Below, one piece after another: positions 8,810 through 63,865 of a stretch of 64,000 bases of DNA (its first letter is position 1; every line of letters begins with the position of its first letter). The stretch lies in assembly GCA_021817225.1 (NCBI GenBank), contig JAKAVR010000001.1:8002-72001 (forward strand), in the 5' to 3' direction. This stretch comes from Thermoplasmata archaeon (GTDB lineage Archaea; Thermoplasmatota; Thermoplasmata; Sysuiplasmatales; Sysuiplasmataceae). The position numbers and the translations under genes were made by a program. The notes beneath the pieces are model-generated. The model saw only the letters and a list, made by a program, of their open reading frames with translations, did no database searches and had not been told where the DNA came from.

Positions 8810-8840
8810 GTGGGGTTCAGCCTAGGTTATCCGCGGCATC

Positions 8841-12426: not shown

Positions 12427-12472
12427 TTGCAGGGTACAATTGAAAAAGGAAAAATAGTAACCAGTTCTACCA

Positions 12473-40317: not shown

Positions 40318-40326
40318 ATCTGCCTG

Positions 40327-43736: not shown

Positions 43737-43755
43737 GACTTACACGCAAGTCTGC

Positions 43756-44604: not shown

Positions 44605-44694
44605 CTCCGCCTGCATTCGCTGCAAACAGGGCTGGATCCTACGGTGCCGATTTGAATGGGTTTGACAGTTTTGGGAAGCAGGACCGGGATTCCG

Positions 44695-48058: not shown

Positions 48059-50701
48059 TCAGGCAGGTTCTGATTTCCTTAGCAGAAGGCTCAGACCCAA
48101 TGCAATCATCACCGACCCTGGAATTATGAGTATGTAGCCCCCGGAAATGTTTGTGTTCGAGTACGAGATGAAGGCACCGGCATACAACGCCAGACCAAGC
48201 AGCATCGAAGCCGTTGCGGCGGCATTGTGCCGCTTCTTTTTCATGACCATGCCTCCGGCCATCCCGAAAGCAACTTTTGACTGAGCTGTCCGGTCAGCGC
48301 CTGCATTGTCCATTGCCGTCACCCGTCTCACTTTCATTCCAGGCGGCTCTGCGGCAGCTGCGACCGCCTTCGGGGCAGCTTCCTGCCTTGCTGTGGTTGT
48401 TGAAGGGCCGCTGTTCAACAATTCCGCAACCCTCGTCGAAACCCTGTCTGATATGTCGCTGGACATTGCCTGGAGTCTGTTGTCGAGCTCGTTCTTGAGC
48501 ACCAGTCTGTCTGTGAGCGACTTGACTTCCTTTTTCACTGCGAATATCTGGTCTTCCATGTCGCTCCTGATATCCTCAATACTTGTCCTTAGCTCGTTAC
48601 GGACACTCACTTCGCTGGAGAGCGCTTCCACTCGGCCATAAAGGGTTTCGAGGCTTTCGTTCAATCGCATAATGCCGTTCTTCACCTGTTCCAGATTTGC
48701 AAGATCGGGTGATTTCGCCTTTCGCTCCACAGTCCCCCCAACAATTTCCTTCTGCACCACTCCTGCTCCGATTTTCTTCCTGAGTTCAAATAGCCGATCC
48801 TCCATGCCAGCAATCTTCTCTTCAAGATTCTTGAGCCCATCACCAGCAGGATCTGCGTTATGCTCACTCGAACTGGGATGCATACTGACAGGCACCACTG
48901 TTTCTTCAGTGGCACCGGTGAAATTCAGGCGGTTCTTTCCCAATTCTTCAGCTCCACCGACACTGACAAGAGATATGCCGGGGCTGTCGTTCCTCCCAGG
49001 CCCATCGGCTTCCTTCTCCTGAGCGGAGTCGAGGATTATAACGTTTGAATTCGGCTGGGATTCACCGGCTGGTGTGCTGCTCGTCGTGACCTCACTCTTC
49101 ACTGCGGGGGCTGCTGCAGGAAGGGCGATATTTGCTGTCTTCTTTGTTTGCCTGTGCTGTCCCTTAAGCACCGAAGAGCCTGCTCTAGAAGCAAGTGTGA
49201 ATGCGAATGTGGAAACAACTATCGAGGTGAGCGCAAGAACGTAAATTGTACCTGAAGAGCTGGTCTGTGTCTGCAGCAGCAGGACGGAAATTGCCGCGAC
49301 TGTTACGCCTCGTGGCATCGTGGCACCCACGAGCTTGAAGTCTTTTCTGAAACTCTCTTTGTTCTTTCTGCTGTAGAACGCCAGTGGAAGACCGAACATG
49401 CCGCTGAGATACCGCAGGCCAACAAAGATCGGGACCATCAGCAGTATCAGCTCAATTGCACCTTTCACCTCGTTCGGAGGAATGGGAGGCAGGCCCTGCG
49501 GGGGGGAGAAGAGCATAAGGCCCAGCTCGATCCCGATGCTGAAGTAGAACACTATCCGGATGAGCAGCTCTATTTCATCGTGGAAGAGCATCATTCCAGT
49601 GAAAGTCCTCTTTCCCTGCAGAGATGAATCACTCTCGTAGCTCTTCCTTCCACCCCCGGGGAAAAGATATCCTATGAAAAAGCCCAGATATATCAGTGCG
49701 ATCAGGGCAAAGAGTGCGTTCGCAAAACCGGCAAATGAAGTGAGTCTCAGCATTTCCTCAAAAACAAGCAGTCCTATGCCCAGGACAATTCCGTAAAGGA
49801 TCATGCCCATCCTCATCTGCTTCTCGCTGAACTCCGTTACATCCGCTGAACGGCGTATTTCTATGTCTTCGGTGGAGGTGGGAAATGGCTTCCTCAGGTA
49901 GAGCACTGCATAAGGCTCTATGCCCGACTTGTTTCCGCCTGAAAGTCTTCGTTTGACAAAGAAGACAATTGTTCTTGAGCTCATGTACACAATAATCGGG
50001 ATTCCTGCAAGAGCGAAGACAAGCACCACAAGATGGTAGTCAATGACGCTTGATAGCGCACTTGCAGTTGTCTGAAGGAAGACAGGGATCGTAGGCGAAT
50101 TATTCCCGATGAATATCTGATTGTAGAAAATCGCAACCATGAGCAGCAGTACTATGCTGTTCATGGTGGATTCCAGTTTTATGACACTCGTGAGTTTTGT
50201 CAGATGTTCCGTTTTGTATGCCCGTTCCGCTGAAAGATTCGTGATGTGATTGAGATACGGAACCACGACTGCGGCGGAAGTCTCACCAATTATCGAACCG
50301 AACAGAGCGCCGAGCGCCCATGGCCATCCAAGCAGCAGCTGGCAGACATAGGCAAAGACTACAGCCGATGAAACGATGTCCACTACCGCCATGATGATGC
50401 CGCCGGCGGCGACTCTAAGGCCCGACCCGCGCAGCTGTTTGGCATCAAGACCGAGCTTGAGTCCCGTCCCCAGGTATATCAGCACGAGTACTGTGTCTGT
50501 AATCAGCGGTATTGAAAAGAACTGTATGAATGAAACGAAAGTCTGCGGCACAGCAATGAAATTGTACACCATGAGGAATGCGAATCCTACACCCCCAAGC
50601 ACAAGAAGCAGGACCTGGAATGCTACACCCGCCACAAATTCATAGATGGCAAATGTCAGAATGGAACCTATCAGTATGAGATACGTTGCGAAAAGCAACA
50701 C
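48059..50701 (-). CDS. cation:proton antiporter domain (N-terminal, about 440 aa) fused to a long coiled-coil/Ser-Thr-rich C-terminal region ending in a TM anchor
   Basis: Na+/H+ exchanger-like N-half. C-half has heptad-like 'LEEKIAGMEDRLFELRKKIG...' segments and terminal TM helices. Confidence 0.6.
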   Translation of the reverse strand: MLLFATYLILIGSILTFAIYEFVAGVAFQVLLLVLGGVGFAFLMVYNFIAVPQTFVSFIQFFSIPLITDTVLVLIYLGTGLKLGLDAKQLRGSGLRVAAGGIIMAVVDIVSSAVVFAYVCQLLLGWPWALGALFGSIIGETSAAVVVPYLNHITNLSAERAYKTEHLTKLTSVIKLESTMNSIVLLLMVAIFYNQIFIGNNSPTIPVFLQTTASALSSVIDYHLVVLVFALAGIPIIVYMSSRTIVFFVKRRLSGGNKSGIEPYAVLYLRKPFPTSTEDIEIRRSADVTEFSEKQMRMGMILYGIVLGIGLLVFEEMLRLTSFAGFANALFALIALIYLGFFIGYLFPGGGRKSYESDSSLQGKRTFTGMMLFHDEIELLIRIVFYFSIGIELGLMLFSPPQGLPPIPPNEVKGAIELILLMVPIFVGLRYLSGMFGLPLAFYSRKNKESFRKDFKLVGATMPRGVTVAAISVLLLQTQTSSSGTIYVLALTSIVVSTFAFTLASRAGSSVLKGQHRQTKKTANIALPAAAPAVKSEVTTSSTPAGESQPNSNVIILDSAQEKEADGPGRNDSPGISLVSVGGAEELGKNRLNFTGATEETVVPVSMHPSSSEHNADPAGDGLKNLEEKIAGMEDRLFELRKKIGAGVVQKEIVGGTVERKAKSPDLANLEQVKNGIMRLNESLETLYGRVEALSSEVSVRNELRTSIEDIRSDMEDQIFAVKKEVKSLTDRLVLKNELDNRLQAMSSDISDRVSTRVAELLNSGPSTTTARQEAAPKAVAAAAEPPGMKVRRVTAMDNAGADRTAQSKVAFGMAGGMVMKKKRHNAAATASMLLGLALYAGAFISYSNTNISGGYILIIPGSVMIALGLSLLLRKSEPA

Positions 50702-51046
50702 TTCTTCAGTTGACGGATAACTTGGGATGGCAGTCGTTTAAGCACTTCTCCCTATCCTCGACTTTATTTGCGTCTTCTATGCGCATTTCAGGCGGATGCC
50801 GGATCATCCTTTCCAGTTGGGTTTGTGATATAAAAAGGGTAAAGACCTGATTATCATCCCGAGGTCCAACATTTCCCCCTGCTTTCACATCAGGGGCACA
50901 ATTTTGTTCCCCTTTCAATTCTTATAAGTTGCAATTCATAAGACCCGCTGTGACTAGGAAAATCACAGTAAACATGTGCATTACCCCGGATGGGCATTCA
51001 GAATTCCAGGATTATCCGGGCCCGGATGCCCAGTTGAATGAACCGG

Positions 51047-51083
51047 GTGCGGCTGCCGGGATATACACATTAAGGTTCGAATC
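51047..51083 (+). repeat. cassette-boundary repeat, copy A
   Basis: 'GTGCGGCTGCCGGGATATACACATTAAGGTTCGAATC', 1 mismatch to consensus. Ends 72 bp past the vapC-1 stop. Confidence 0.85.
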
Positions 51084-51154
51084 TGAGATTGAATGGTACG
51101 TGCCTAAAGAAGACGTTTCAATGTTCAGTGTCAATTTGCACTAGGCGGGCAGTT

Positions 51155-51628
51155 TCAGCCTTTAGCGTGATGGACTGCTTTGGCCGTAGTGATACCGGAC
51201 CTTATTGCCCTGGTTATGCTCCAAACCTCAATAACGCGCTCATCCCGTATCTGATTGAAGTGCTTGTCATTGGTGATGAGGATTGCACTTTCCTGAAGGC
51301 AAGTGGCCGCATGAAGTGTGTCTGCCGGTTCGTTTGCCGGCATATATTTGGCGCAAATGGAAACGAAGTTGTTTCCAACCTGAACCATACGCATTCTGTT
51401 GAGCAGTGCCTCAACAAGTAAGGCTGCTGTTTCGGAATGAAATTCCTCTGCATACCGCAGCATCTCCTCTACCCAAAATTCATTTCCAACAAGTTGTAAG
51501 TTGTCATTTTGTATAAGTTCCAGTAGGAAACGAAGTGTACCCGTTTCCCTGCCTGGATGCCTCACAGCAGCTACGAAGACGTTGGTATCAAGGAGAAAGG
51601 ACCGGATAGGACTTTCTGATAAGAGCAT
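51155..51628 (-). CDS. vapC: PIN-domain toxin (VapC-1)
   Basis: 'LLDTNVFVAA' and 'ILITNDKHF' PIN acidic motifs. Confidence 0.7.
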   Translation of the reverse strand: MLLSESPIRSFLLDTNVFVAAVRHPGRETGTLRFLLELIQNDNLQLVGNEFWVEEMLRYAEEFHSETAALLVEALLNRMRMVQVGNNFVSICAKYMPANEPADTLHAATCLQESAILITNDKHFNQIRDERVIEVWSITRAIRSGITTAKAVHHAKG

Positions 51629-51881
51629 TTACGTCCTTCCTGATACGGCTGGCTATTTCATCGATGTCTTTGCCTTCCAGTTCCTTTTCAAGGCGCGCAG
51701 CTATTGATTTCACATCCAATTTCTGGAGTATTATGCGACCGCCTCCAGAGATTGTGATAAGAATCTTCGCGCCTTCATCAATTCCGGCCGCCTTCCGGAT
51801 TTCCTTAGGTATTACTATCCTACCCGCCCTGTCTATTCCTGCTATCTCTTCCATTGATTCATGTATATGCCATAATGCCAT
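51588..51881 (-). CDS. vapB: AbrB/SpoVT-fold antitoxin (VapB-1)
   Basis: 'AGRIVIPKEIRKAAGIDEGAKILI' swapped-hairpin motif. Overlaps vapC. Confidence 0.65.
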   Translation of the reverse strand: MALWHIHESMEEIAGIDRAGRIVIPKEIRKAAGIDEGAKILITISGGGRIILQKLDVKSIAARLEKELEGKDIDEIASRIRKDVNALIRKSYPVLSP

Positions 51882-52096
51882 TTAATCTTTATGTTGGTAT
51901 AATGGCAGTTCATCCGACACATGATGTGGATTGCAAAGCCTGGAGCGGACACTGCATTTCACGCCATATCAGTGATTGGAGCGTCTCATTCATGTTGTTC
52001 CCATTCCAGGATATGTTGACCCAGAGTCTCAAGTGTCCGGATTGCAGGCGAGCAACTATTCACTCTAAGCTCGAATTCTTAGCCATCTTTGAATAT

Positions 52097-52134
52097 GTGC
52101 GGCTGCCGGGATAAGCGCATCAATGTTCGAATCC
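52097..52134 (+). repeat. cassette-boundary repeat, copy B
   Basis: 'GTGCGGCTGCCGGGATAAGCGCATCAATGTTCGAATCC', 4 mismatches. Confidence 0.8.
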
Positions 52135-52373
52135 TGGAGACTACTTATAGACGCCCGCTTTGATTGAGCAACAAGGTTCCAACTCATTTAAGGTAGAAAT
52201 CTACCTTGTGACATTACGTGATTAACGCTGGCATCTATAGTCTGAAATACACTGCCTACGACGATGAAAGCTGTCTGCAATCTCCCGCTCATTTACGGAT
52301 TGCTCAAATAGCCGCATTACTCTCGAGGATTGCTGTAAGTAAGCCCGATTGGACCTTTAACTCCCTGTCAAAT

Positions 52374-53297
52374 TCAAATCACACGCTTCTTAACATCGCT
52401 CATACTTTGCACAAGACTGTCCTTGTCTTCGACTACCAAGACATTATACCTCACCCTCCTTCCACTTGAGAGGAGGAAGTAAATCCAGCCTGAATATGGC
52501 CGCTTGAATGGATTCAGGGTCTTCCTTACGTATCCTATTTCTTCCACAACTTTCCTGTCAATCCAGAAATCGTTCGGAAAGTGGTCAGAGGGACCACCAG
52601 ACTTAAGCGACTCAATCCTCTGCTGGCATATTTCCCTGATTGTTCCTCTCTTGAGACTGTCGTTCCACATTTCCTGGGAGTTACTTATGGGGCCCTGAAC
52701 TTGTTGAGGCGAGAGACATGTAAGGAAAATCAAACGTTTGTTCGTTACGATAATCACGTTCTCAGTGTATTTTCCTTCAGCAACCCCCTCCTCAACAGGG
52801 TGGAGCCTGAACACAGGTGCGGCGTGAGCCAAAAGTCCTTCTCCAGGCAGGAGTTGAACCGGAGAATTTCCAAAAGGATTAATCCCCTCTTCCCCTCTCT
52901 GTATATTTCCCCTAAGATTCTCCTCCTTATTGAGGTATAGCTGCCCGATCCGCCTGCTTTGGTATATCGCAAGCACGAGGATAAATAGCAGTATCAGGAA
53001 CAATACAGCCACATCATATATGGGAAGACCGAGTGGAATCGAGATTATGACAACGATCAATAAAAGGAAGAAGATGACGAGTCGTGCAAATGTTCGCATA
53101 GCTGACTGTCTCTTCATGGCAGTGGCTCCGATTGCCCCTGCTCTACCGGGACCACTGTATGTTGCACCTGCTGAAGGTATGCCATTGGTTGTCGGATTGC
53201 TCAGTTGTTTTCCGCATGAGGTGCAGTATACAGGGTTCCCCGAATGTTCAGTGCCACAATTTGGGCAACACACTAGGTTGTAAAGGGCATTTACCAT
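52374..53297 (-). CDS. double zinc-ribbon / transmembrane protein with uncharacterised C-terminal domain
   Basis: 'CPNCGTEHSGNPVYCTSCG', then 2 TM helices, then a roughly 190-aa soluble domain. Confidence 0.5.
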   Translation of the reverse strand: MVNALYNLVCCPNCGTEHSGNPVYCTSCGKQLSNPTTNGIPSAGATYSGPGRAGAIGATAMKRQSAMRTFARLVIFFLLLIVVIISIPLGLPIYDVAVLFLILLFILVLAIYQSRRIGQLYLNKEENLRGNIQRGEEGINPFGNSPVQLLPGEGLLAHAAPVFRLHPVEEGVAEGKYTENVIIVTNKRLIFLTCLSPQQVQGPISNSQEMWNDSLKRGTIREICQQRIESLKSGGPSDHFPNDFWIDRKVVEEIGYVRKTLNPFKRPYSGWIYFLLSSGRRVRYNVLVVEDKDSLVQSMSDVKKRVI

Positions 53298-53709
53298 AAG
53301 CGCTCATTCCTCAGAAACATCAACCTGCCCATACATCCGCCTACTTTGGGAAGAACAATACTGGAATTTCTGCTTACCAGAAACAGAGGAATATCGTCCG
53401 AGACGGACGATGTCGCGTAGTTGATCTGACTGTATTTACTTAAACTTAGTGATTTATTTTATCACATGTCTCATAATCAGTGCCAATTACTGGAATTCTA
53501 AGAGTGGACAAGTTACTGAGAAATGCGGCCAAAGCATCCAGTGGAAGATGGTGCGTGAAGCTGTAGAACCAATACTCCCGTGCGACGGCGGCCAATATCT
53601 CCATGACATACCTGGAAGGTGCAAGGTGTGGAAGGTATCGAGGCACAACAGGATTGGGCATTAGAGCGACTTAGGCGACAATATCTTGAAAGTGTTGGAT
53701 TGATTATAA

Positions 53710-55278
53710 TATTAATCCCTGACTCCCGCTGATTTAGGCAATCTGTCTCCAGTTCTTCGATTTTGAGCACGATTTCATCGGCAGATCTAAGTACTAGCTT
53801 GCCTATATACACTATTGATGACCACATTCCCGGAATGGGTGCTGAAATACAGGGAGAAGGGGACTGATGTCAGATACCTGAATGGTCACTACTACCTCTA
53901 CAGTGTGACGAGCAAATACGATCCTTCTGTGAAGCGGTCGCGGAAAGTAACACTTGCATATCTCGGCAGGATAACGCCAGAAGGACTTGTGAGGCCCAAG
54001 GCAGCCAGGATGATGGACGAGCTGCAGTACATAACAAACAGGGAGTATGGTGCATCGAGCTTCATACTCTCCGAGTGCTCCGATGTGATCGAGCTCCTGA
54101 AGAAACACTTCCCCGATGAATGGAAGGAGATTGCAGTGTGCGCAATCATGCGCTTCTTCCATTCATCACCCATGAAGAACATGCAGCTGCACTATGTTTC
54201 GTCGCATCTCTCCGATGCGCTGCCTGATGCACGTATGTCGCCCGAGAGTGTGAGCAATCTGCTGCACTACACTGGACTGCGAAGGCAGAGGATTGTTGAC
54301 TTCATGTCAAACTTTGTTCAGGGGGAGCAGTGCGTCATAGACCTGACGCACGTATTCTCGAGGAGCGAGAATGTAATAGCCGCCACACTGGGCCACAACC
54401 CCGGCGGCGGCCACATTCCTCAGCTGAACATGGTACTACTGACATCTTTGAAGGGCAACCACCCATCATTTTTCAGGATTGTGCCTGGGAGCATCGGCGA
54501 TGTATCCACGATAAGGATGACCATGAAGGAGGCTGGCATATCCGGTCCTGATGCTGTCCTGGTCGGAGACAAGGGTTTCTACTCAAAGGACAACATGCTC
54601 TTCCTCGAGAAGGAGAGGATGCGCTTCATACTGCCGCTCAGGAGGGACAGCGCATTCATCGATTACATACCTGCAAGGGGTGACGCACGCACAAAGTTCG
54701 ACGGCTGCTTCATGTTCGATGAGAGGGTCATATGGCACAGCAGGAGGGACATTCGGAAGAGGAGAGTGATCCTCTTCCTCGACGAAGACCTCAGGACGGA
54801 GGAGGGGAGGGACATGATCGCGCGCATAAAAGATGGCAGGGGAAGGATGTCATCGTACCATGAACAGATGCAGAAGATGGGAACCATTGCGATCATAACA
54901 AACACGACGGCACGTCCGCAGAGGGTGTATGAGCTTCTGAAGAGGAGGATAGAGATAGAGCAGACATTCGACACGTTCAAGAGCACACTGCATGCGGACC
55001 GCTCCTACATGAGGAGCGATGTGAGCATGCAGGGATGGATGTTCATCAACTTTGTTGCACTGCTGCTCTATTACAGGGTATACGACCTGCTGTTCAGGAG
55101 GAAGCTGCTCAAGAAATACTCGCCGGGGGACGTGGTGCTGCACCTGTCGCTCATATCGAAGATGAAGATTGGCGACAGGTGGGTGCTGTCTGAGATACCA
55201 AAGCAGTCCAGGATACTCATGGAGAAACTTGAAATCAGCGTATCGATTGCCTAAATCAGCGGGAGTCAGGGATTAATA
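53710..55278 (+). mobile_element. IS element (IS4/IS1634-like), 1569 bp, perfect 34-bp terminal inverted repeats
   Basis: Left IR 53710-53743 'TATTAATCCCTGACTCCCGCTGATTTAGGCAATC' is the exact reverse complement of 55245-55278. No flanking target-site duplication. Confidence 0.85.
53815..55254 (+). CDS. DDE transposase (IS4/IS1634-like, 479 aa)
   Basis: 'LVGDKGFYSKDN' and 'IEIEQTFDTFK' DDE-region blocks. Lies inside the TIR-bounded element. Confidence 0.75.
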   Translation: MMTTFPEWVLKYREKGTDVRYLNGHYYLYSVTSKYDPSVKRSRKVTLAYLGRITPEGLVRPKAARMMDELQYITNREYGASSFILSECSDVIELLKKHFPDEWKEIAVCAIMRFFHSSPMKNMQLHYVSSHLSDALPDARMSPESVSNLLHYTGLRRQRIVDFMSNFVQGEQCVIDLTHVFSRSENVIAATLGHNPGGGHIPQLNMVLLTSLKGNHPSFFRIVPGSIGDVSTIRMTMKEAGISGPDAVLVGDKGFYSKDNMLFLEKERMRFILPLRRDSAFIDYIPARGDARTKFDGCFMFDERVIWHSRRDIRKRRVILFLDEDLRTEEGRDMIARIKDGRGRMSSYHEQMQKMGTIAIITNTTARPQRVYELLKRRIEIEQTFDTFKSTLHADRSYMRSDVSMQGWMFINFVALLLYYRVYDLLFRRKLLKKYSPGDVVLHLSLISKMKIGDRWVLSEIPKQSRILMEKLEISVSIA

Positions 55279-55440
55279 CATCATCATTAAAATGTCCCCC
55301 ATGGGCATACCACTCCTTCTGCAGTCACCTGTTGGAATCTGCGTATCTCTTTGGATTCGCACCTTTTGGTTCTATTTTGGGAGAACTGATATCCCCGCTT
55401 CATTTGCTATAGGTTCGAATCTGATGCCCAAACGGACCGT

Positions 55441-55478
55441 GTGCGGCTGCCGGGATATACGCATTAAGGTTCGAATCC
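55441..55478 (+). repeat. cassette-boundary repeat, copy C (consensus copy; extended unit 55410-55478)
   Basis: 'GTGCGGCTGCCGGGATATACGCATTAAGGTTCGAATCC'. Upstream half-site 'TAGGTTCGAATC' at 55410-55421. Confidence 0.85.
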
Positions 55479-55670
55479 TGGCTTTTGCACCCTGAGCATA
55501 GAATCTGGCTACTTCACCAGCATAAGGCTCTCACCTATCTTCATTGTCTAATGTACATTGTTTGCCAGGGTGATGCCAGCAATCAACAGATATGCTCATT
55601 CTTCAATCTTAAAATGCCCCTTATAAGATCTGTCCATATATACATGCAGATCCTGAATTTCTTTTAAATC

Positions 55671-56036
55671 ATGTCAAGAGTGGTCTCGACCTATTTTCAT
55701 GCAAACCGTAGTATCATTAAAGTTTTGCAAAAGCTGATACAGCTAAGCGTGGTTAACTATAGACGAACTAGCTTGACTCTAAAACTGAAGATCGGGAAGA
55801 AAGGATACGTGATTATTCCAAAAGCGATTAGAAAGGCAATCGGTGTTGATGAAGGCGATGACCTGATAGTCACTGTTGAAGACGGAATAAGGCTAATTCC
55901 CGAAAGGAAGATTGACAGGAACTCGTTGCATAAAGCGATTGCTCGCCACAAAGCAGCTGTCTTTTCTATGGGCAAAGCCAAGGCCCCTAGGGTAGGGGAA
56001 GCAAAGAAGTACTCACTGGAGGACGAGTTTGACTAA
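55671..56036 (+). CDS. vapB: AbrB/SpoVT-fold antitoxin (VapB-2)
   Basis: 'IGKKGYVIIPKAIRKAIGVDEGDDLIV'. True start probably internal (GTG 55749 or TTG 55773). Confidence 0.55.
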   Translation: MSRVVSTYFHANRSIIKVLQKLIQLSVVNYRRTSLTLKLKIGKKGYVIIPKAIRKAIGVDEGDDLIVTVEDGIRLIPERKIDRNSLHKAIARHKAAVFSMGKAKAPRVGEAKKYSLEDEFD

Positions 56037-56128
56037 TGTTTTCATAGACACCAGCCTTTTTGTTTATCTTAACACACCATCAATAAACTTCGTCAAATGT
56101 GCTGCCTTCTATGAAGATGAAATTAATG

Positions 56129-57555
56129 CATTGGTGTTCGGTTAAGGAAATGCCAGTTCATCTCCCATCAGCCTCCTTCTCCTGACATTCGGATCCAGCG
56201 CAGGACTTTCATAGAAGGCGAGTGCCTTGTCGAAGCCATCCTCTATGTCCATGTAGTCAAGCAGGAAGTCAAACAGCCTTGTTCCCCTCTCTACAAATAT
56301 CTTTGACCATCTCAGGCGCGTGTACCGTATTGCGTCGATTCCCTTCCCGTCCACAACTATGAGATAGAGGCGGCGGGAAACGAGCATTGTTATGAGTGCA
56401 GTCCATACAAGCGCTTCCACAGCATGCGGGTTGGCCGTTGGCATCTGGTCCAGCCTGTACTGTGATTTCAACTCCTTGAACACAAGCTCTATCTCCCATC
56501 TGCAGCGGTAGAGTGTGGCGACTTCCGCCGCATTGAGCCTCCCGACAGGGAGGTTGGTAATGTATGAGTGATACTCCCTCCTGACATCATCCCACACGCA
56601 TACGAGCCTGAAACGTGCGGCCGCAGCAGATCTGCTGCCACGGTACTGCCTCTTCCTGAACGACACCTCGACAACTGCATCCAGCATACCATGATGCATC
56701 TCTGGAAGGAGTTCGCTGAGATGCCTCCCGGGCACACCTTCCGGGAGTCCGCTGCCCGCATTCACGCTGAGTATGAGCACATCGGCATTGGATTTCAGTC
56801 TTGAGAGGAAGTAACCGCCGTTCGCCTCAATCCTCTCAAACAGGGAGTATTTGAAGAAACCGGGATCTGCTATGAACAGCCTGTCCTTCACCCACTTTCC
56901 AATCCTGACTGTCTTTATCTCCGCCTGCCTCTCGCCGAATATGCGGACAGACTTCGGTCCGCCGCCTGTCATGCTTATGATTGCAGATACCCTGATGCCT
57001 GCGGCAATCCTCCTGCTCCTTGTTGCAGGCCACATCTCTGCAAGCTTTGCATTGAGCCTGATGACACTGCTGTCCTGGACAACAATATCCTTCAGGAAGG
57101 AGAGCGCTTCCTTCAGTTTCTTTCCCGGAAGCGATGAAAGCTGCTCCATGCCGTGCAGCACGCACTCATGAAGAAAGCGGACGAGCTCCGGGCTGAAGCG
57201 CTCATAGAAGCTGCTCATCGCAATACCGATGCCTGCCCTCTCCTCATAGCCGCGCTTCAGCGATGCCAGTGTCCTCTGCGTGTGCATGCTTATGCTGAGT
57301 GCAAACGTCCAGAAGAGATAGACCGGATCTATCTTCCTCTCCCTCTTCACGAGACCCGTCTTCCTTGCAGTGCTCCGAAGCCACTGAGGAGAGTACATTT
57401 CTGTGAGTCTCTCCTCCACAATGTAATCGTTCTTTTCTTTCTCTGCAGGCACTCCCTTCCGTTTGTTTACAGATACTCTCATTCATGCATCCCGGAAAGT
57501 GAATGCCAGTGGCGCTGTAAATAATTATTCAGAAATCCTTAACCGAACACCGATG
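56129..57555 (-). mobile_element. IS4-family insertion sequence, 1427 bp, 19-bp imperfect IRs, 10-bp TSD
   Basis: IR 'CATTGGTGTTCGGTTAAGG' (56129-56147) versus the reverse complement of 57537-57555. TSD 'GAAATTAATG' at 56119-56128 and 57556-57565. Confidence 0.85.
56142..57482 (-). CDS. IS4-family DDE transposase (446 aa)
   Basis: 'LYRCRWEIELVFKELK' Y-(2)-R-(3)-E-(6)-K motif typical of IS4. Confidence 0.85.
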   Translation of the reverse strand: MRVSVNKRKGVPAEKEKNDYIVEERLTEMYSPQWLRSTARKTGLVKRERKIDPVYLFWTFALSISMHTQRTLASLKRGYEERAGIGIAMSSFYERFSPELVRFLHECVLHGMEQLSSLPGKKLKEALSFLKDIVVQDSSVIRLNAKLAEMWPATRSRRIAAGIRVSAIISMTGGGPKSVRIFGERQAEIKTVRIGKWVKDRLFIADPGFFKYSLFERIEANGGYFLSRLKSNADVLILSVNAGSGLPEGVPGRHLSELLPEMHHGMLDAVVEVSFRKRQYRGSRSAAAARFRLVCVWDDVRREYHSYITNLPVGRLNAAEVATLYRCRWEIELVFKELKSQYRLDQMPTANPHAVEALVWTALITMLVSRRLYLIVVDGKGIDAIRYTRLRWSKIFVERGTRLFDFLLDYMDIEDGFDKALAFYESPALDPNVRRRRLMGDELAFP

Positions 57556-58020
57556 GAAATTAATGACAATCATGCTTACACAAATGTTGTTGTTCTTGAC
57601 GAACTACTCTATGTGTCAAAGAAGAAATATGGGGTACCTTATTCCACAACGCTTGATTTGATTGACTCAGCAATAGTCCCTTACGTCGACATCTTGAACA
57701 TAGATTTGAACACCTACACAACAATGAAAGAAATCCTCAGATACTGTCCTAAACCGAGCGATGCTCTTATTGCCGCAACAATGAAGAATTCCTCTATGGG
57801 TATCATTCTTAGCGAAGATGGCGGGTTTGATAAGATTCCGTTCATTGAGCGAAAGTGGATAGATCACTGAGATCGCCCTCTTATTCGTTTGACGATCTAT
57901 TTACTTCCAGATACGAGTGACCAGAATATGTAAGCGGTGTCTTAATAATCTGTTTATAAATATAATGTTGTTAAAATGCACCTTGTTGGATCTGATTGTA
58001 GGTGCATCCAAACCAAGACT

Positions 58021-58060
58021 GTGCGCGACTGCCGGATTATGCGCATTAGTGTTCGAATTC
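58021..58060 (+). repeat. cassette-boundary repeat, copy D (degenerate)
   Basis: 'GTGCGCGACTGCCGGATTATGCGCATTAGTGTTCGAATTC'. Ends 73 bp past the vapC-3 stop. Confidence 0.7.
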
Positions 58061-58132
58061 AATATAGGTCTTCATTGTAAGGGAAAAATCCAAGGTTGAC
58101 CGTTGACTTCAGTCACCCATAAGCCTCCAAAC

Positions 58133-58540
58133 TCACTGACTTGGCTGCTGTATTTCGAGACCACGAATTCTCCTGAATTCCTTCACATTGTTTGTAACAA
58201 GAGGAATACCGAGTGCCATTGCTGTTGCTCCAATTAGCATATCAAGCGACCCTATCGGTTTTCCGTTGTTTTCAAGGCTCGCTCTAATCTTTCCATAACA
58301 AACTGCGGCGTCATGGTCGAATTCGGCCACCTCCAGAGGCAGGAGAAACTTGTCCAGGGCTCTCTTGTTTCTCTCCTGACTCGAACTCTTCCGCACACCG
58401 TATTCCAATTCGGCAAGAGTTATCACCGAAATTCCCAACTCGCCTGCCTCATGTGCCCTGATCCATGGAAGGCTCCTGTCTCGGAATGCCTTGTTCCTGA
58501 TTAGGTCAATGCAATAGTCTGTGTCGAGCATGAGGATCAA
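58133..58540 (-). CDS. vapC: PIN-domain toxin (VapC-3)
   Basis: 'MLDTDYCIDLI' and 'PLVTNNVKEF' PIN motifs. ATGA overlap with vapB. Confidence 0.8.
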   Translation of the reverse strand: MILMLDTDYCIDLIRNKAFRDRSLPWIRAHEAGELGISVITLAELEYGVRKSSSQERNKRALDKFLLPLEVAEFDHDAAVCYGKIRASLENNGKPIGSLDMLIGATAMALGIPLVTNNVKEFRRIRGLEIQQPSQ

Positions 58541-58779
58541 TCGAACAGCTCCCCTCTCTTCTTCTGCAAAGGCTGTTTCCTTGATTCCATGAAGTCATCG
58601 GTGAACATTGATAGGCCTTCGACAAACACGTTCCAGACGTCTTCCATAGGCATCAACAACAGATTCACCCCATTCCTCTTGACATAGACCTCCTTGGCAT
58701 TTATCCGGAAATCGGCAGGGAGTCTGACTGCCTGGCTGTTTCCACTCTTGAAAACCTTAGCAGTCCTGATTTTTGGCAT
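58537..58779 (-). CDS. vapB: AbrB/SpoVT-fold antitoxin (VapB-3)
   Basis: 'KVFKSGNSQAVRLPADF'. Confidence 0.75.
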   Translation of the reverse strand: MPKIRTAKVFKSGNSQAVRLPADFRINAKEVYVKRNGVNLLLMPMEDVWNVFVEGLSMFTDDFMESRKQPLQKKRGELFD

Positions 58780-59007
58780 GATGATGTATATACATTAATG
58801 TATATATGTAGTTATCTAGGGGGCGCCCTTCCCATCATCTGATCCATAAGGGAGTGAAACGAGGAGGATCGCACAAACCGAAGAAGCAAAGTCAGTCAAT
58901 AATGTGGATTTTGCCCGATCTGGGTCTTCAGTTTCACTTTCTGGTGTGATGAAACTTCTTGTCACACTTTCTCCATGTTAGAACCTGATATCCAGATAGG
59001 GTATTCA

Positions 59008-59042
59008 CTGCGGTCGCGATATACGCATCAAGGTTCGAATCC
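59008..59042 (+). repeat. cassette-boundary repeat, copy E (internal deletion)
   Basis: 'CTGCGGTCGCGATATACGCATCAAGGTTCGAATCC'. Ends 42 bp past the fic stop. Confidence 0.75.
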
Positions 59043-59083
59043 TCGGTGACGGGCAATATCATTGATTTTCTAGAGCATTGCCT

Positions 59084-60010
59084 TCAATCTTTATTATTGC
59101 CCTGCGGCACGATCATTGTATATTGCTCCAATAGCAGATTTCCTAGGAACATGGCAAAGGATTTGTGGTTTCCTGCATCCCCTTTTTCCAATTCATTGTA
59201 GTATTGTTCCCTGTCAGTGAATTCCACTATGACAGGCGGAAACTTAGACCTTATGAGTATCCAGTTCATCATGAGCCTGGCAGTTCTTCCGTTCCCATCC
59301 GCAAATGGATGAATGTTAACGAGTCTGTTATGCACATAAGCCGCAAGTTCTACAGGATGGTTGCTCTTTCTCTTGCTGCGAATCTCCTCCATCAGTGAAT
59401 TAAGGAGCTTAGGGACCTCAGAGAATGTGGGCGGAATATGAGAAGAACCCGCAATTCTGACTTCACCGTCCCTGAATTTGCCTTGAATTCTGCAAGAAGT
59501 GTTCTTTGTTACCTCGTACTGCACTTTGCTCAAGAATCCATTGCTGAAAGGTCCTTTGTAGTTCTTGATAAAATCCCATGCATCTGCTGCGTTCAGGACT
59601 TCTATCACGTCATCCGTCCTTGCACCGGCAGGAGACACTCTATCACTGAGCAGCAGTGCAGTTTGCCGTAGGGTGAGCCTGTTGCCTTCTATCGCGTTTG
59701 TGTTGTAAGTGTATCGCACAAGAAAGTCTTTAGGTATTGCTTCAATCGGCTTTCTGTATACCGTGATCAGCGATGCTCTGATGTCATCCAGCTTCGCTAT
59801 CATGTCACTTTGCAGCCAAGTGGTTTTGAACCGGGGAGTTGACTGCTTTTCCAATTTGAAAAGATGCCTGCGCAATTCTTCAGGCGGGGGTATTTCTCTT
59901 CCAAGGAAAATTCTATACTTCTTTACAGTGGTGGCGTTGGCCCTCACGTTCTTGACCAGATAATAGTAATTGTGATTTCCATGCCGTTGAGTTTCGATGA
60001 AGGACATCAA
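59084..60010 (-). CDS. Fic/Doc-family protein (probable AMPylase)
   Basis: Fic motif 'HPFADGNGRTARL'. Confidence 0.8.
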   Translation of the reverse strand: MMSFIETQRHGNHNYYYLVKNVRANATTVKKYRIFLGREIPPPEELRRHLFKLEKQSTPRFKTTWLQSDMIAKLDDIRASLITVYRKPIEAIPKDFLVRYTYNTNAIEGNRLTLRQTALLLSDRVSPAGARTDDVIEVLNAADAWDFIKNYKGPFSNGFLSKVQYEVTKNTSCRIQGKFRDGEVRIAGSSHIPPTFSEVPKLLNSLMEEIRSKRKSNHPVELAAYVHNRLVNIHPFADGNGRTARLMMNWILIRSKFPPVIVEFTDREQYYNELEKGDAGNHKSFAMFLGNLLLEQYTMIVPQGNNKD

Positions 60011-60305
60011 GTATGGCTACGCTTTCCTTGATTTTAAATATTGTGGCCATAATGACCACTTTAGTATTATTACTGACTAAAGTAGCCATATAAGTCCATA
60101 TTCAAGTCAGGTTGTTTAGCAGATATGATGGACTCTCTGAATGAGCTGCAAGCGTGAGATAGTCACCGAATAGCATAAAAATGGATCTTCTGTAGCGGAC
60201 AGTAGGTGTTACCAGGTGAATTCGAGTCTCAAGGTTCGATTTTCGGTTACATGAACTGATTTTTTCGCTCACTTTAGGTTCGAATACAATGCCGCCATGG
60301 ATTAT

Positions 60306-60343
60306 GTGCGGCTGCCGGGATATACGCATTAAGGTTCGAATCC
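60306..60343 (+). repeat. cassette-boundary repeat, copy F (consensus; extended unit 60275-60343; extra half-site 60231-60244)
   Basis: 'GTGCGGCTGCCGGGATATACGCATTAAGGTTCGAATCC'. Ends 62 bp past the stop of the 408-aa gene. Confidence 0.85.
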
Positions 60344-60404
60344 AATCAGGGTGGAATTGTGGAGGTTGACAGAACTCAAGTTGCGAAGTTCAGGCTTGAT
60401 GAAT

Positions 60405-61631
60405 TTATTCCTCTTCGTGCTTCCGAAGCACCATCTGGGCTTCTAGAGGTATGCGCCTTTCGATCGAGGCTATCCAACTTACAAGCTCCTCTACGTTGCA
60501 GTTTTCCCCAGCCACTCGCAAATTCATGCTCTGGATGTTTAGGTATCGGAGAGCATTTTTGGCTTCTTCGGGCTCATCTTCCGAGTTGTAGGTGCTCACT
60601 GCCCAGCCGAATGGAATCAGCTCAGGCACTGTAGGCAACCAGTCATCTAGCCTTTCGTCGATATGTTCGAACGCATTTCTTACTCTGCGCGATATCATAG
60701 GATTCTCTCCTTTGATGCCCAGAATAAGCCGCAGCTCTCGCCCTCTCCTCACAGATCTACTGACCGCTTCAGGTCCTCTACCTTTATCAGGATTCGGCCA
60801 GAGAATGTGGGAAATGTTCGAAGCTGCTGAAAGCAAAGCATGAACCAAAAGCCAGATTCTCTGGTTCCATTGCCTCTTTCCTTTGTCATCAATCGGGGGT
60901 GGATCCTTCCCGGCCGATACAAAGGCCATAAACGCCGTAGCAATCTGGGCCGATTGTTCACGTAGTTCTACCATGAAGACAGCTAGTTCCCTAGCTTCTT
61001 CTGTCGAGCGTTGCAGTTCTTGCTCTGGCACTGGATCTTGGGCTATTATCGTTTTCAGAATACTGGCAGCTGCCTCTAAGGATCCAAATGCACTATTCTC
61101 AGTTATCCAAAGTTCCACCGCGCTGGTTATTTTACATATAGTGCTCAATGCAAAGTCTGTTTTCTGCGCTAGGCGGCTGCTAAAATTCCTCTTATTCCTC
61201 ACGAAATTGATTCGGTCTTCGATTTTAGTATCCACTATTTTCTTGTCTTTTGCTGATTGGATTATTCTACCCCAATCACTCTGGATATAGTCAAAGCTTA
61301 TGCGAAATACTCCTTCCTTCAGTCCGTTGCCTGGCTTCTTAACGACTTTCCTTATGACAGCAATGTATACAGCGGTTTCAATTGCTGCGCCACACATTAC
61401 AGCCGTGGCCAGATACGCACCATTTTGGAAGCAAGAGATGGACTCACGAAGGAGATCTATCGATGGCATGAAGAGAGTTGTTCTTTCAGTATCTAGTTTT
61501 TGTAATTCCAATCCACTCCAAAGTTCAGTTACTTTCACCTGTCTCGCCTTGCGATACTCATCGCATCTTGTGGGTCCGATGAATATTCCTGGTGTTTTCT
61601 GGTTTCTTAGGGCCCTTGGCTTGGTCGTCAT
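60405..61631 (-). CDS. hypothetical 408-aa protein with a possible HEPN-like R-x4-H motif
   Basis: 'RRVRNAFEHIDERL' fits R-x4-6-H. Otherwise no recognised domain. Cassette position. Confidence 0.4.
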   Translation of the reverse strand: MTTKPRALRNQKTPGIFIGPTRCDEYRKARQVKVTELWSGLELQKLDTERTTLFMPSIDLLRESISCFQNGAYLATAVMCGAAIETAVYIAVIRKVVKKPGNGLKEGVFRISFDYIQSDWGRIIQSAKDKKIVDTKIEDRINFVRNKRNFSSRLAQKTDFALSTICKITSAVELWITENSAFGSLEAAASILKTIIAQDPVPEQELQRSTEEARELAVFMVELREQSAQIATAFMAFVSAGKDPPPIDDKGKRQWNQRIWLLVHALLSAASNISHILWPNPDKGRGPEAVSRSVRRGRELRLILGIKGENPMISRRVRNAFEHIDERLDDWLPTVPELIPFGWAVSTYNSEDEPEEAKNALRYLNIQSMNLRVAGENCNVEELVSWIASIERRIPLEAQMVLRKHEEE

Positions 61632-61754
61632 GGGAAATGAGTATTCACCAATGCTTTACAAATCTCTTCTCGTCTAGGTTCATTTCGGCACTACACACGA
61701 ATGAGACTCAACTGGCTAGACAGGAAGTGTTTGTAGATCTAGGGGAACAGAGAC

Positions 61755-62932
61755 TATTGTTATGACAATTTAGATATTCGGTATATCTATATACACGCTT
61801 TCCCATATCCTGTCCGATGAGAAGGCTCGACATCATGCTGAATGACAAAGACATATCAAGACTCAGGAAGATCATAAAGAGCGGCATGGTGATGGTCAGG
61901 GCGGTGATGCGCGCCAATGTTCTGCTTCTGTCCGTTTCAGGGAAAGGAAACGACGACATCGCTCAGATACTCAACATCAACCGCGACACAGTACTCAGGA
62001 TAAAGAAAAGATACATGCAGGGCGGCATAGACATGGCTGTCTACGACGGAAAGAGGCCGGGACAGCCGAGGAAGTACACTGAAAAACAGATGGCGGAGAT
62101 AACGGCGCTCGCATGCACGAAGCCTCCGGGCGGCAGAAAGAGATGGTCTGTGCGCCTGCTGACGGACGAACTGAAGAGGAGGAAAGGCTTCAGGAGCATA
62201 AACAGGGAGACAGTCAGGCTCATTCTAAAAAAAACGGAACAAAGCCGTGGAAGAGAAGAATGTGGTGCATCCAGGCCATAGACAGCGAATACAGGAAGAG
62301 GATGTACGACGTGCTCGACCTCTATGCAAATCGAAGCAGAAGTGCTCATGTGATAGCCATCGATGAGAAACTGAAACAGATAGTATCGGACAGGAGAAAG
62401 ACCATACCGATGAAACCGGCTTCTCCTGAAAGGTATGACTACGAATACACGCGACACGGAAAGGCAAACATATTCATCGCCGTTGAACCGAAGAAGGGGA
62501 AGCGGATAGTAAAGGTGACGGAGAGAAGAACCAAAAGGGACTTTGCACTCTTCGTGAAGGAAGTCCTGAAAGAGTATCCGGAGGCAGGGAAAATCTGCGT
62601 GGTGCTGGACAATCTCAACACTCACTTTCCCGGTTCATTTGAGGAAGCGTTCGGAAGGGAGGAGAGGGAGAGGATCATGTCAAGGGTGGAATTCCATTAC
62701 ACACCGAAGCACGCAAGCTGGCTCAACATTGCAGAGATAGAGATCAATGTGATGGACATTGAATGCCCGGGAAGGAGATTCGAGAACAGGGAATCGCTGG
62801 AAAAGGAAACAGTTCTCTGGGCGGCGAAGAGAAACGCACAGAGAAAGAGGATAGAATGGGGATTCAACAGAAAACAGGCGGACAGGAAGCTGTCAAAATA
62901 TTATGCAACATAATTATATTGTCATGACACTA
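61755..62932 (+). mobile_element. IS630-family insertion sequence (about 1.18 kb), TA-flanked, imperfect 15-bp IRs
   Basis: Left 'TATTGTTATGACAAT' (61755-61769) versus right 'ATTGTCATGACACTA' (62918-62932), 13/15 complementary. TA at both outer ends. Confidence 0.65.
61817..62913 (+). CDS. IS630-family transposase, orfA/orfB joined by programmed -1 frameshift at an A8 run
   Basis: orfA 61817-62281 (HTH). orfB 62113-62913 (DDE 'VVLDNLNTH', 'HASWLNIAE'). Slippery AAAAAAAA at 62227-62234. orfB is in the -1 frame. Confidence 0.7.
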
Positions 62933-62965
62933 GACACGCTCTATTTGATAAGGGGATAAACTTGA

Positions 62966-63865
62966 CTACTGTTGAACTTCAAGTTCCCCTCTTTCAGCAA
63001 GAGATCTTATCTTCTTCTTCAGAACATCAACAAAACCCAATTCTCCCCTGAGTATGTTTTTTAACTCTTTACCTGAAAGTATCACAAAATTAGGTGCTTT
63101 CCCTACTTTCATTGCCTCCAAACCGTCTTCGGTAAAGCCATGTACCGAAATAAAGAGACCCCTAGTCCACGAACTCTTACGTTCAACCTTGTCGGAAAAA
63201 GATGCAAGATCAGATTTTGCAGCCTTTTTTGTCCTCCACCTTGCCTCCAGAAGATAGACTTCCGAGTCAAGGGTGAAAGAACCATCTACTTCTTCGCCAG
63301 TTACTCGAAATGGTTTTCCTGGATTTAATCCAAAATCCGAAAGGATGTCAAACAGCAATTCCTGGAACTCATATCCGCGGTTTTGGACATCTGGATTTGT
63401 TTCCATCAAGTCATATCTTTCACTAAATTCATGTAGTCTACTCCCTGAAATGTCCTCCATGTGCTTGGAATCATATAGATTGGATGACTCCTGCAGTAGC
63501 GAAAGGAAATCAGGATTGGACAACTCAGGTAGCACGAGTCCTAGATTCCTGATGGCCGTGTCGAGCAACACTACTTCCTCTTTGGTGACCGAATCGCCCT
63601 TCTTATCTCTGTATTTCATACCTTCTCTTACAATTGTGATTAGTAATGGGCCAAGGCATGCTTTTTCGAATGCACCTTCCAATAGACCCTGAAGTGCAGG
63701 GAGTTTGCTGCCGCCTGACCAATGAGCTTGAAGACCATGTCTCTGTGCAGCATCAGCAAAAGTGAATATGCGCCCAAAAGGAGGAGAAGATCCGGGAAGC
63801 CACTTGTAGAGCAGGGTGGCAATTTGGCTGATTAGTCTAGTTTGTCGGAAATCGGGCTTTGCCAT
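62966..63865 (-). CDS. Mrr-cat-like (PD-(D/E)xK) restriction-endonuclease-fold protein with uncharacterised N-terminal domain
   Basis: C-terminal 'VDGSF...YLLEARWR...GLFISVHGFTEDG' resembles the Mrr catalytic core. Tentative. Confidence 0.4.
   Translation of the reverse strand: MAKPDFRQTRLISQIATLLYKWLPGSSPPFGRIFTFADAAQRHGLQAHWSGGSKLPALQGLLEGAFEKACLGPLLITIVREGMKYRDKKGDSVTKEEVVLLDTAIRNLGLVLPELSNPDFLSLLQESSNLYDSKHMEDISGSRLHEFSERYDLMETNPDVQNRGYEFQELLFDILSDFGLNPGKPFRVTGEEVDGSFTLDSEVYLLEARWRTKKAAKSDLASFSDKVERKSSWTRGLFISVHGFTEDGLEAMKVGKAPNFVILSGKELKNILRGELGFVDVLKKKIRSLAERGELEVQQ

Follow-up and report, generated by a model that had tools for sequence, protein, structure and literature searches.

Defence islands are well known, and for that reason a list of genes alone adds little to what has been described. 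Integrons, and integron arrays without an integrase (clusters of attC sites lacking integron integrases, or CALINs), have been documented in archaeal genomes, where toxin–antitoxin (TA) and restriction genes are the commonest cassettes according to PMC9668308. In the sedentary integrons and CALINs of that paper, short cassettes of one or two genes each carry a similar repeat, TA and defence genes predominate, and no integrase is adjacent. Cassette content also differs between close strains, and the break points lie in the sites. All of these features recur in the locus described here, which occupies the end of a 64,000-nucleotide stretch (the window) of a contig from an uncultured archaeon of the Thermoplasmata. 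The main text of PMC9668308 does not mention a Thermoplasmata-like lineage; nine phyla are listed in its Fig. 1 and data tables.

The first-pass annotation had taken the last 13 kb of the window (51155–63865) for a defence and addiction island. Every element that it listed is present where it had been placed, and its reading is backed by PADLOC matches, composition, strain variability and the defence neighbourhoods of homologues. The region is a genuine defence/addiction island of a familiar kind. Unrelated defence and TA families are clustered with mobile elements: VapBC, Fic, HEPN, PD-(D/E)xK nuclease and Mza genes are located together with insertion sequence (IS) elements, the composition is atypical, and a close relative lacks positions 51084–59018. 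It shows no essential difference from known defence islands and is a typical case. The island is real, but it is not limited to the last 13 kb, and runs past the end of the window into the genes MzaBCDE. The segment 51084–64000 is very probably the inner part of a strain-variable TA and anti-virus island of at least 20 kb in the chromosome, which combines a cassette array with recombining repeats (part A) and a second part (part B).

These parts differ in architecture. Part A (51013–60343) consists of repeat-bounded cassettes, and part B, from 60344 onward, is free of repeats. The latter contains a conserved gene string (a 299-aa PD-(D/E)xK nuclease, a DUF4145 HEPN module and a new Rx4H module) that is split by an IS630 element and followed by MzaBCDE outside the window.

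What the first-pass annotation overlooked is a direct repeat in part A. The unit of 44–72 nt occurs in six copies on the same strand, which bound five cassettes. Its core reads GTGCGGCTGCCGGGATATACGCATTAAGGTTCGAATCC, and the unit holds two boxes that are direct copies of the near-palindrome GGTTCGAAT. The copies are as follows, where L016 and L017 are loci of close relatives and all six come from a repeat search.

51013–51084, plus strand: repeat R1; only the 44-nt core is conserved, and the left part is chromosomal flank beside the gene of an 880-aa membrane protein; left border of the block missing from L016
52063–52134, plus strand: repeat R2
55407–55478, plus strand: repeat R3, a full unit with both GGTTCGAAT boxes
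57989–58060, plus strand: repeat R4, the most diverged copy, left box absent
58971–59042, plus strand: repeat R5; right border of the block missing from L016
60272–60343, plus strand: repeat R6, a full unit; replaced in L017 by two copies

The copies are 61–93% identical over 44 nt (27–41 of 44 positions). A 17-nt core with at most three mismatches occurs six times, against 0.16 occurrences expected by chance. The core was not found in window positions 1–51 kb, nor in the IS630 element, the 299-aa gene or the Mza part. All six repeats lie in non-coding gaps, which make up 28% of the stretch. They delimit these cassettes:

Cassette 1, 978 nt: vapBC1
Cassette 2, 3272 nt: gene of a 307-aa protein and an IS1634-family element
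Cassette 3, 2510 nt: vapB2, IS4 element, vapC2
Cassette 4, 910 nt: vapBC3
Cassette 5, 1229 nt: Fic gene

Four of the five cassettes are on the minus strand and point to the next repeat, which lies 42–240 nt beyond the stop codon. The gene of a 408-aa protein in part B ends 62 nt before R6.

Evidence for gain or loss of cassettes at the repeats is provided by the close relatives. Over 13 kb of shared core, L016 is 97.8% identical to the window. It joins window position 51083 straight to 59019, both inside the repeat; a 7.9-kb block is absent, and a single repeat copy is present. The two borders of this block are copies of one sequence, identical at 21 of 23 nt. As a consequence of the junction, the Fic gene of L016 abuts the conserved gene of the 880-aa membrane protein, and the alignment sets the left border of the island at 51083/51084. 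In L017, two repeat copies surround an extra 4.0-kb cassette with a gene for 1119 aa, exactly at the position of the single R6 of the window. Thus, close relatives show two independent differences, each with both ends inside the repeat. Junctions of this kind, in which cassettes come or go at the sites, are a mark of integrons, and they are found between the window and L016 as well as between the window and L017. No similar repeats were found in three other loci (L007, L009 and L019). Half of the island follows the logic of a sedentary integron: a cassette plus a site, TA cassettes, and strain differences at the sites.

Part B contains the gene that is the most promising one here for a new effector, the 408-aa protein (60405–61631, minus strand), because of its C-terminal Rx4H family. 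The HEPN-like Rx4H motif that had been claimed for this protein is present (RRVRNAFEH), but the protein is a fusion of two modules, and its DUF4145 half lacks the catalytic His. The genes of part B inside the window are:

61032–61631, minus strand: N-terminal half of the 408-aa protein (residues 1–200), a probable DUF4145/HEPN-family domain with an Arg, R153, at the His position (32 of 37 relatives match PF13643)
60405–61031, minus strand: C-terminal half of the 408-aa protein (residues 201–408), a family without database match, with R318 and H323 (family alignment, model)
62966–63865, minus strand: 299-aa protein, an N-terminal helical domain and a C-terminal PD-(D/E)xK (Mrr/MspJI-like) domain (Pfam Mrr_cat, 21.6 bits against a cut-off of 21)

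The whole 408-aa protein matches nothing in Pfam, NCBIfam, PADLOC, PHROG or the PDB sequences. A word-indexed search returned only eight relatives, all over residues ~200–408 and most of them with an N-terminal GNAT domain. An exhaustive HMMER search found 893 cluster representatives (50% identity), each of which matches one half only.

The C family is about 200 aa long and has the consensus LWP...RG..LR...R..RNxFEHxDE..W. At least 90% of 40 relatives share its Arg, His, Asp and Glu, and the HEPN motif Rx4-6H with a polar residue after the Arg is present as R318-N-A-F-E-H323. Relatives occur in Thermoplasmata and Bathyarchaeia genomes; there is no PADLOC or PHROG match for the family. The structure was predicted for the C domain only, and a full-length MAFFT alignment placed C-family sequences onto the N half. 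In the AlphaFold model (pLDDT 92) the domain is a helical bundle, with long helices at 3–42, 49–77 and 87–104 and a short helix at 115–122 that ends at the His. A helix at 124–134, a four-strand sheet and a last helix follow. The modelled secondary structure appears compatible with the description of HEPN domains in PMC3710099. A Foldseek search of BFVD finds the fold only in an uncharacterised protein of Gordonia phage Madeline (A0A514A2X7, TM 0.61–0.67).

A member of the C-domain family is also encoded on an IMG/VR viral contig (L011, 506–1300). Viruses, and not only their hosts, may therefore carry the family.

Among the closest described systems are the HEPN toxins of the HepT/MntA type, whose partner is a modifying enzyme. 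As in these, the C domain combines R-N-x3-H, with the polar residue after the Arg, with a helical bundle, and its relatives are fused to the fold of a modifying enzyme (GNAT). Unlike in HepT/MntA, this partner is an acetyltransferase fold and not a nucleotidyltransferase. The C domain also matches neither HepT nor any other HEPN protein in sequence or fold, and it carries the four-strand sheet and helix after the bundle. The RNAFEH of the C domain would be the only intact catalytic motif of the 408-aa protein, for which the prediction is a HEPN-type RNase that is independent of metal and remains silent in the absence of a trigger.

The N half probably belongs to DUF4145. This is a HEPN family (PMC3710099), and the DUF4145 domain of RAZR is a HEPN RNase in which Arg146 and His154, eight residues apart, are essential for defence (PMC13017515). 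N-family proteins are stand-alone proteins of about 190 aa, and 32 of 37 match PF13643 (best E 3.3e-7); the N domain of the window reaches only E 0.035, which is below the cut-off. The family consensus is IRxxGNFxAH, with the same Arg-to-His spacing as in RAZR, and the window reads VRNKRNFSSR. At least 90% of the family keep the His. In the window its place is taken by an Arg (R153), and a relative with 80% identity retains the His. The 408-aa protein resembles RAZR (PD-T7-4; PMC13017515) in that its N half is probably of the DUF4145 family and the Arg–His spacing of that family is equal. It differs from RAZR in lacking a zinc finger, in its Arg for the catalytic His, and in its second, unrelated Rx4H domain at the C terminus.

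The fusion is visible by comparison with L017 (GCA_046705205.1), whose DNA is 91% identical. There, two codirectional genes of 194 and 189 aa lie 71 nt apart. The sole length difference between the fused and the split version is 1 nt in a run of A, which brings a stop after the N module in L017. The identical 408-aa sequence has been recovered from three separate assemblies, and a sequencing error is therefore unlikely to explain the Arg at the His position. Judged by sequence, the 408-aa protein is a recent fusion, by a 1-nt insertion or deletion, of two otherwise separate modules. Between the window and L017, the ratio of nonsynonymous to synonymous substitutions (dN/dS) amounts to 0.42 in the N part and 0.22 in the C part. 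Thus, both modules are under purifying selection and neither is decaying.

The run of A lies at 5225–5240 of L017 (61040–61055 of the window) and reads GAAAACGATAA versus GAAAAAATAA; each version is found in independent assemblies. A slippery homopolymer of this kind could make the fused or split state a reversible switch. Across 60405–63865, dS to L017 amounts to 0.59 in the 299-aa gene, against 0.24 in the N module and 0.14 in the C module. Such strong differences between neighbouring genes indicate recombination within the conserved gene string.

The 299-aa protein had been described as an Mrr-cat-like PD-(D/E)xK protein, and Pfam and Foldseek both support the restriction-endonuclease fold. 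It has 107 homologues, mostly full length. The AlphaFold model (pLDDT 92.6) shows the restriction-endonuclease fold at the C terminus, and the top Foldseek matches are MspJI (E 6e-5), EndoMS/NucS, AspBHI, FokI and a Shedu nuclease, with probabilities of 0.96–1.0 for EndoMS and AspBHI. D194, E207 and K226 are invariant in the family. The N-terminal helical domain of about 150 aa matches nothing, and neither an SRA nor a winged-helix reader was recognised in it. The protein is thus like the type IV restriction endonucleases Mrr and MspJI in its C-terminal PD-(D/E)xK fold and in being encoded by a solitary gene in defence neighbourhoods. It is unlike them in its N-terminal domain and in the Arg that most members have in place of the ExK lysine.

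Next to 299-aa homologues lie restriction–modification genes, Kiwa, Cas1, a Ymh-HEPN gene or a Mu-like element. Taken together with those of the C domain, homologues on unrelated contigs adjoin Hachiman, Kiwa, restriction–modification, PLD-nuclease and Cas1 genes. A fixed partner of the 299-aa family was sought in four outside contexts and none was found; only one of these (L012) has a C-domain gene, at a distance of 4 kb. On this unrelated archaeal contig, the 299-aa-family and C-domain genes stand at 8001–13435 together with a Ymh-type HEPN gene, a methylase–Mrr fusion and cas1. Their co-occurrence could be a coincidence or a looser association.

Cassettes of part A would be gained and lost by recombination inside the repeats, and a recombinase encoded elsewhere would most likely act on them site-specifically, as in an integron array without integrase. 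Whether recombination at the repeats is site-specific, rather than a homologous exchange, is close to an even question. A wider proposal is that the repeats are the sites of a cassette-capture system other than an integron, with a recombinase acting in trans that is possibly a host enzyme of the Xer type. It also holds that the RNxFEHxDE domain founds a new HEPN-like RNase family, which circulates in archaea, bacteria and phages as a module of one gene and is found fused to GNAT or DUF4145 as well. This wider proposal is tentative and has a modest chance of being right.

Several results weigh against the overall reading of the island given here. Neither the window nor the next 10 kb holds a visible recombinase gene, and deletions between direct repeats of 40 nt can also come from homologous recombination. 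A regular-expression test for canonical attC found no R''/R' pair (RYYYAAC/GTTRRRY) at the six sites, and shuffled sequence folds as well as the repeats do (z −0.8 to −1.6). The repeat has no match in the JGI metagenomes or IMG/VR, and is therefore known from one lineage only. For the C domain, none of 40 family members matches any Pfam model, HEPN included, and hhalign of the C family against the N family (DUF4145) gives a probability of about 1%. Foldseek with the C-domain model returned nothing from the PDB at E<0.2, and the family profile nothing relevant. Thus, the C domain is treated here as HEPN-like and not as a demonstrated HEPN member. At the position of the ExK lysine, the 299-aa protein of the window and most of its relatives carry Arg, and some relatives carry Lys.

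Candidates for the recombinase and for its site were also considered. Two open reading frames (ORFs) of about 330 aa in the window are an FKBP-type isomerase and DapA. The examined genes of the window and of L014, the continuation of the contig beyond the window, include no IntI tyrosine recombinase. An Xer/dif site is an 11-6-11 dyad (PMC2958812), and no such dyad was seen by eye in the repeat core. A tRNA gene or fragment as integration site was likewise rejected: ARAGORN found nothing in the window and four related loci, Rfam nothing at E<=1, and the repeat could not be threaded by hand onto a cloverleaf.

The main rival to a capture system holds that the repeats are passive, a lineage-specific intergenic repeat or miniature element, and that the strain differences arose by ordinary homologous recombination with no cassette machinery. 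An identity of 61–93% over 44 nt suffices for occasional recombination of the RecA/RadA type, no recombinase is adjacent, and the two near-palindromic boxes of each unit could serve as short terminal repeats. It is left unexplained, however, why unrelated units of one or two genes each carry one trailing copy, why all six copies share their orientation, and why the repeat is absent from the neighbouring 51 kb of core and from part B. No target duplications surround the units, and the extra cassette of L017, with its two copies at a single-copy site of the window, has the signature of an insertion of a site plus a cassette. Passive repeats are possible, but a minority choice. Alternately, part A may be a classical CALIN, in which an IntI encoded elsewhere acts on the repeats as attC sites. 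The architecture of a cassette plus a site speaks for this, as do the high similarity of the sites within the genome (a trait of sedentary chromosomal integrons), the dominance of TA cassettes, the orientation of four of the five cassettes towards their downstream site, and the archaeal precedents cited above from PMC9668308. Integron sites are identified as at least two attC less than 4 kb apart with R''/R' cores and a hairpin, and of these only the spacing, 0.9–3.3 kb, fits here. All six sites of the window repeat lack R''/R' cores; the two boxes of the unit are direct GGTTCGAAT copies and not an inverted pair, its single strand has no significant hairpin, and no IntI or other tyrosine recombinase is found nearby. 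A classical CALIN is thus improbable. Since archaeal integrons and CALINs have already been described, even the best case for part A would not add a new category.

A third explanation takes the region for the decaying remnant of an integrated plasmid or virus, whose TA genes served plasmid maintenance and in which nothing functions in immunity. The low G+C, the three IS elements and the disrupted toxin gene would suit a remnant. So would GGTTCGAATCC in the repeat, which is like a tRNA T-loop, as often seen at archaeal integration sites, and the occurrence of the C-domain fold both in a protein of a Gordonia phage and on a contig of IMG/VR. Yet the region has no gene for an integrase, replication, a capsid or conjugation, neither a tRNA gene nor a fragment of one was recognised, and separate integrated elements would have to be much larger than cassettes of about 1 kb. 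All genes except vapC2 are intact, dN/dS to the relative is 0.2–0.4, and MzaBCDE, Fic and the nuclease are genes of the defence type; a remnant is therefore very unlikely. For the 408-aa protein alone, it has to be asked whether the DUF4145 and Rx4H modules form a two-gene TA or effector–regulator pair, of which the 408-aa protein would be the fused form. The modules are adjacent, codirectional and 71 nt apart in L017. An N-family gene stands head-to-head with a GNAT-C gene in a Thermoplasmata locus (L009), a GNAT-C gene with Hachiman genes beside it is immediately preceded by a weakly N-like ORF in L004, and L007 has an N-family ORF at a distance of 4.6 kb. By analogy with MNT–HEPN pairs, the GNAT acetyltransferase fused to the C domain elsewhere might be a covalent regulator. 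Against a pair, none of eight further loci has an N-family ORF within 6 kb of the C-domain gene, the closest stand-alone N and C genes (L019 and L022) have no partner, and all 893 cluster representatives are single-domain. A pair is thus rather unlikely, and a functional link between the two families is possible but not general.

The remaining genes of the cassettes begin with the VapBC pairs. Three of these had been reported, and three sets of AbrB/MazE and PIN genes are indeed found, but only two are intact because the IS4 element sits inside vapC2.

51155–51628, minus strand: vapC1, PIN-domain toxin, 157 aa (Pfam PIN E 1.3e-12, profile positions 2–118 of 120)
51588–51881, minus strand: vapB1, AbrB/MazE-type antitoxin, 97 aa (Pfam MazE_antitoxin E 4.9e-10)
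55671–56036, plus strand: vapB2, AbrB/MazE-type antitoxin, 121 aa (Pfam MazE_antitoxin E 3.1e-12)
56029–57870, plus strand: vapC2, PIN toxin gene split by IS4 into a 5' part (56029–56128) and a 3' part (57556–57870), as seen by removal of IS4 in silico
58133–58540, minus strand: vapC3, PIN toxin, 135 aa (Pfam PIN E 2.1e-18)
58537–58779, minus strand: vapB3, MazE/AbrB antitoxin, 80 aa, overlapping vapC3 by 4 nt (Pfam MazE_antitoxin E 6.1e-6)

The downstream ORF of vapC2 (57463–57870, plus strand) matches Pfam PIN only over profile positions 28–119. Removing 56129–57555 and one 10-bp duplicate in silico gives an uninterrupted PIN ORF of 133 aa, which begins at a TTG at 56029 and overlaps the stop of vapB2. 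The PIN gene is thus directly downstream of the AbrB/MazE gene, overlapping or abutting it, in pairs 1 and 3 as they stand and in pair 2 after removal of IS4. Toxicity of VapC and its neutralisation by VapB are predicted roles. The intact pairs may act as addiction modules that stabilise the array.

The three IS elements belong to different families, as had been proposed. All transposases score above the curated NCBIfam cut-offs, and all three elements have inverted repeats.

53710–55278, plus strand: IS1634-family element, 1569 bp, transposase at 53815–55254 (NCBIfam 133 bits, cut-off 100)
56129–57555, minus strand: IS4-family element, 1427 bp, transposase at 56142–57482 (NCBIfam 230 bits, cut-off 115)
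61756–62931, plus strand: IS630-family element, 1176 bp, overlapping ORFs at 61817–62281 and 62113–62913 (NCBIfam 145 bits, cut-off 100)

The IS1634-family element ends in perfect inverted repeats of 34 bp, and no target duplication was seen around it. The ends of IS4 are 20-bp inverted repeats (19 of 20 matching) flanked by the 10-bp target duplication GAAATTAATG. IS630 has TA on both sides and is inserted between the 299-aa and 408-aa genes; L017 shows the site free of IS630, between the 299-aa gene and the next gene. Pfam finds DDE domains in the IS1634 and IS4 transposases and helix–turn–helix and DDE_3 domains in the IS630 ORFs. No further copies of the three elements occur within the window. 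Two of them would have entered the cassette array later, and one of these would have inactivated vapC2.

The terminal repeat of IS4 at 56129–56148 (CATTGGTGTTCGGTTAAGGA) and the core of the cassette repeat (CATTAAGGTTCGAATCC) have CATT and GTTCG in common. This resemblance is probably due to chance.

The two other cassette genes are as follows.

59084–60010, minus strand: class II Fic protein, 308 aa (Pfam Fic E 1.5e-20; motifs; PADLOC)
52374–53297, minus strand: orphan protein of 307 aa with an N-terminal zinc ribbon, two transmembrane helices (about residues 70–113) and a C-terminal domain of 190 aa (weak Pfam Zn_Ribbon_1; hydropathy)

The identification of the former as a Fic AMPylase agrees with its Pfam match. 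The active-site motif HxFx(D/E)GNGRxxR is present as HPFADGNGRTAR at residue 234. The motif of the inhibitory helix, (S/T)xxxE(G/N), precedes the core as TNAIEG at residue 104, which is the class II arrangement. PADLOC matches range from E 1e-24 to 1e-29 and include PDC-S04 (E 1e-28) and SoFic (E 1e-24). The protein is like SoFic and PDC-S04 in its canonical active-site motif, its N-terminal inhibitory helix motif and these hidden Markov model matches. Unlike SoFic, it is shorter and covers positions 21–255 of the 361-position PADLOC SoFic model, and it does not reach the cut-off of the SoFic equivalog NF046030 of NCBIfam (23.2 bits against 550). The Fic gene is also present in L016, L017 and L019.

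The description of the 307-aa protein as a zinc-ribbon membrane protein is supported by the weak Zn_Ribbon_1 match and the two transmembrane helices. The protein is confined to this lineage, its sole match among 5.8e9 proteins being its own 90% cluster. Its C-terminal part has no Pfam match at E<=1, and searches for homologues and against the PDB and PHROG gave nothing useful. Among the uncharacterised ORFs of the island, none was assigned to a housekeeping family by Pfam, NCBIfam, PADLOC or further profile searches.

Beyond the end of the window, the island continues for at least 7.7 kb on the same contig in public assemblies. There, MzaB, C, D and E form one operon (L014 2380–9776; PADLOC E 5e-27 to 5e-194). 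The PADLOC models thus match both the Fic protein and the flanking MzaBCDE genes. No mzaA was found. Two genes of 333 and 249 aa (L014 277–2041) lie upstream of mzaB, beyond the Mza genes as seen from the window, and match nothing in PADLOC or Pfam. Fic, the Rx4H domain, the nuclease and Mza may act as effectors of growth arrest, abortive infection or restriction.

A departure from the organisation upstream had also been proposed, and the island differs from positions 1–50 kb in G+C, in G+C at third codon positions (GC3) and in tetranucleotide distance. G+C falls from about 0.53 in the core to about 0.46 in the island region. The core genes (n=25) have a G+C of 0.536 +/- 0.013 and a GC3 of 0.621, with a minimum of 0.557. 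Without the transposases, island genes have a G+C of 0.39–0.49, and nine of ten have a GC3 of 0.40–0.52 (vapB3, 0.63). The tetranucleotide distance to the 1–50 kb profile is twofold higher in the island.

Positions 1–50 kb contain housekeeping genes, such as those for AsnRS, GcvT, GuaA, AHCY, LysA, DapA/DapL, acetoacetate-CoA ligase and haem synthesis. An Orc1/Cdc6 replication-initiator gene (7637–8809, minus strand; 270 bits against an NCBIfam cut-off of 181) marks the host as archaeal, and the intergenic region near it may hold a replication origin. The best match of a nucleoside kinase is of the Thermoplasmatales type. A bacterial-type, coproporphyrin-dependent haem pathway is encoded at 38393–45516 of the window and 13372–19917 of L016, with URO-D, ferrochelatase, a HemY-type oxidase, ALAD, PBG deaminase, HEM4 and a chlorite-dismutase-like HemQ. 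Most archaea make haem by the sirohaem route, so that horizontal acquisition of this pathway is worth considering. An adenine-specific (N6/N4, CcrM-like) DNA methyltransferase of 508 aa (14972–16498, plus strand) lies in the core with no obvious partner nuclease adjoining it and may be an orphan methylase. The 880-aa membrane protein that borders the island (48059–50701, minus strand) has conserved counterparts of 879 and 902 aa in relatives. It combines an N-terminal membrane part like that of a cation antiporter with a long coiled coil that has weak SMC/DruC/LmuB-like matches, and belongs to no Pfam family.

The C family is not a small one, with 893 clusters at 50% identity when both halves of the 408-aa protein are counted together. 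It has no match in Pfam, the PDB, PADLOC or PHROG, and it is found consistently in defence neighbourhoods. Its size and neighbourhoods, together with its conserved Arg, His, Asp and Glu and its confidently predicted fold, make it a good candidate for a new abortive-infection effector. The island itself shows a possible route by which such regions are assembled in an archaeon, through repeat-bounded cassettes with strain differences at the repeats, in a setting that lacks both attC-type sites and an integrase nearby. Should the repeats be genuine recombination sites, they would belong to an integron-like gene-capture device of a new type.

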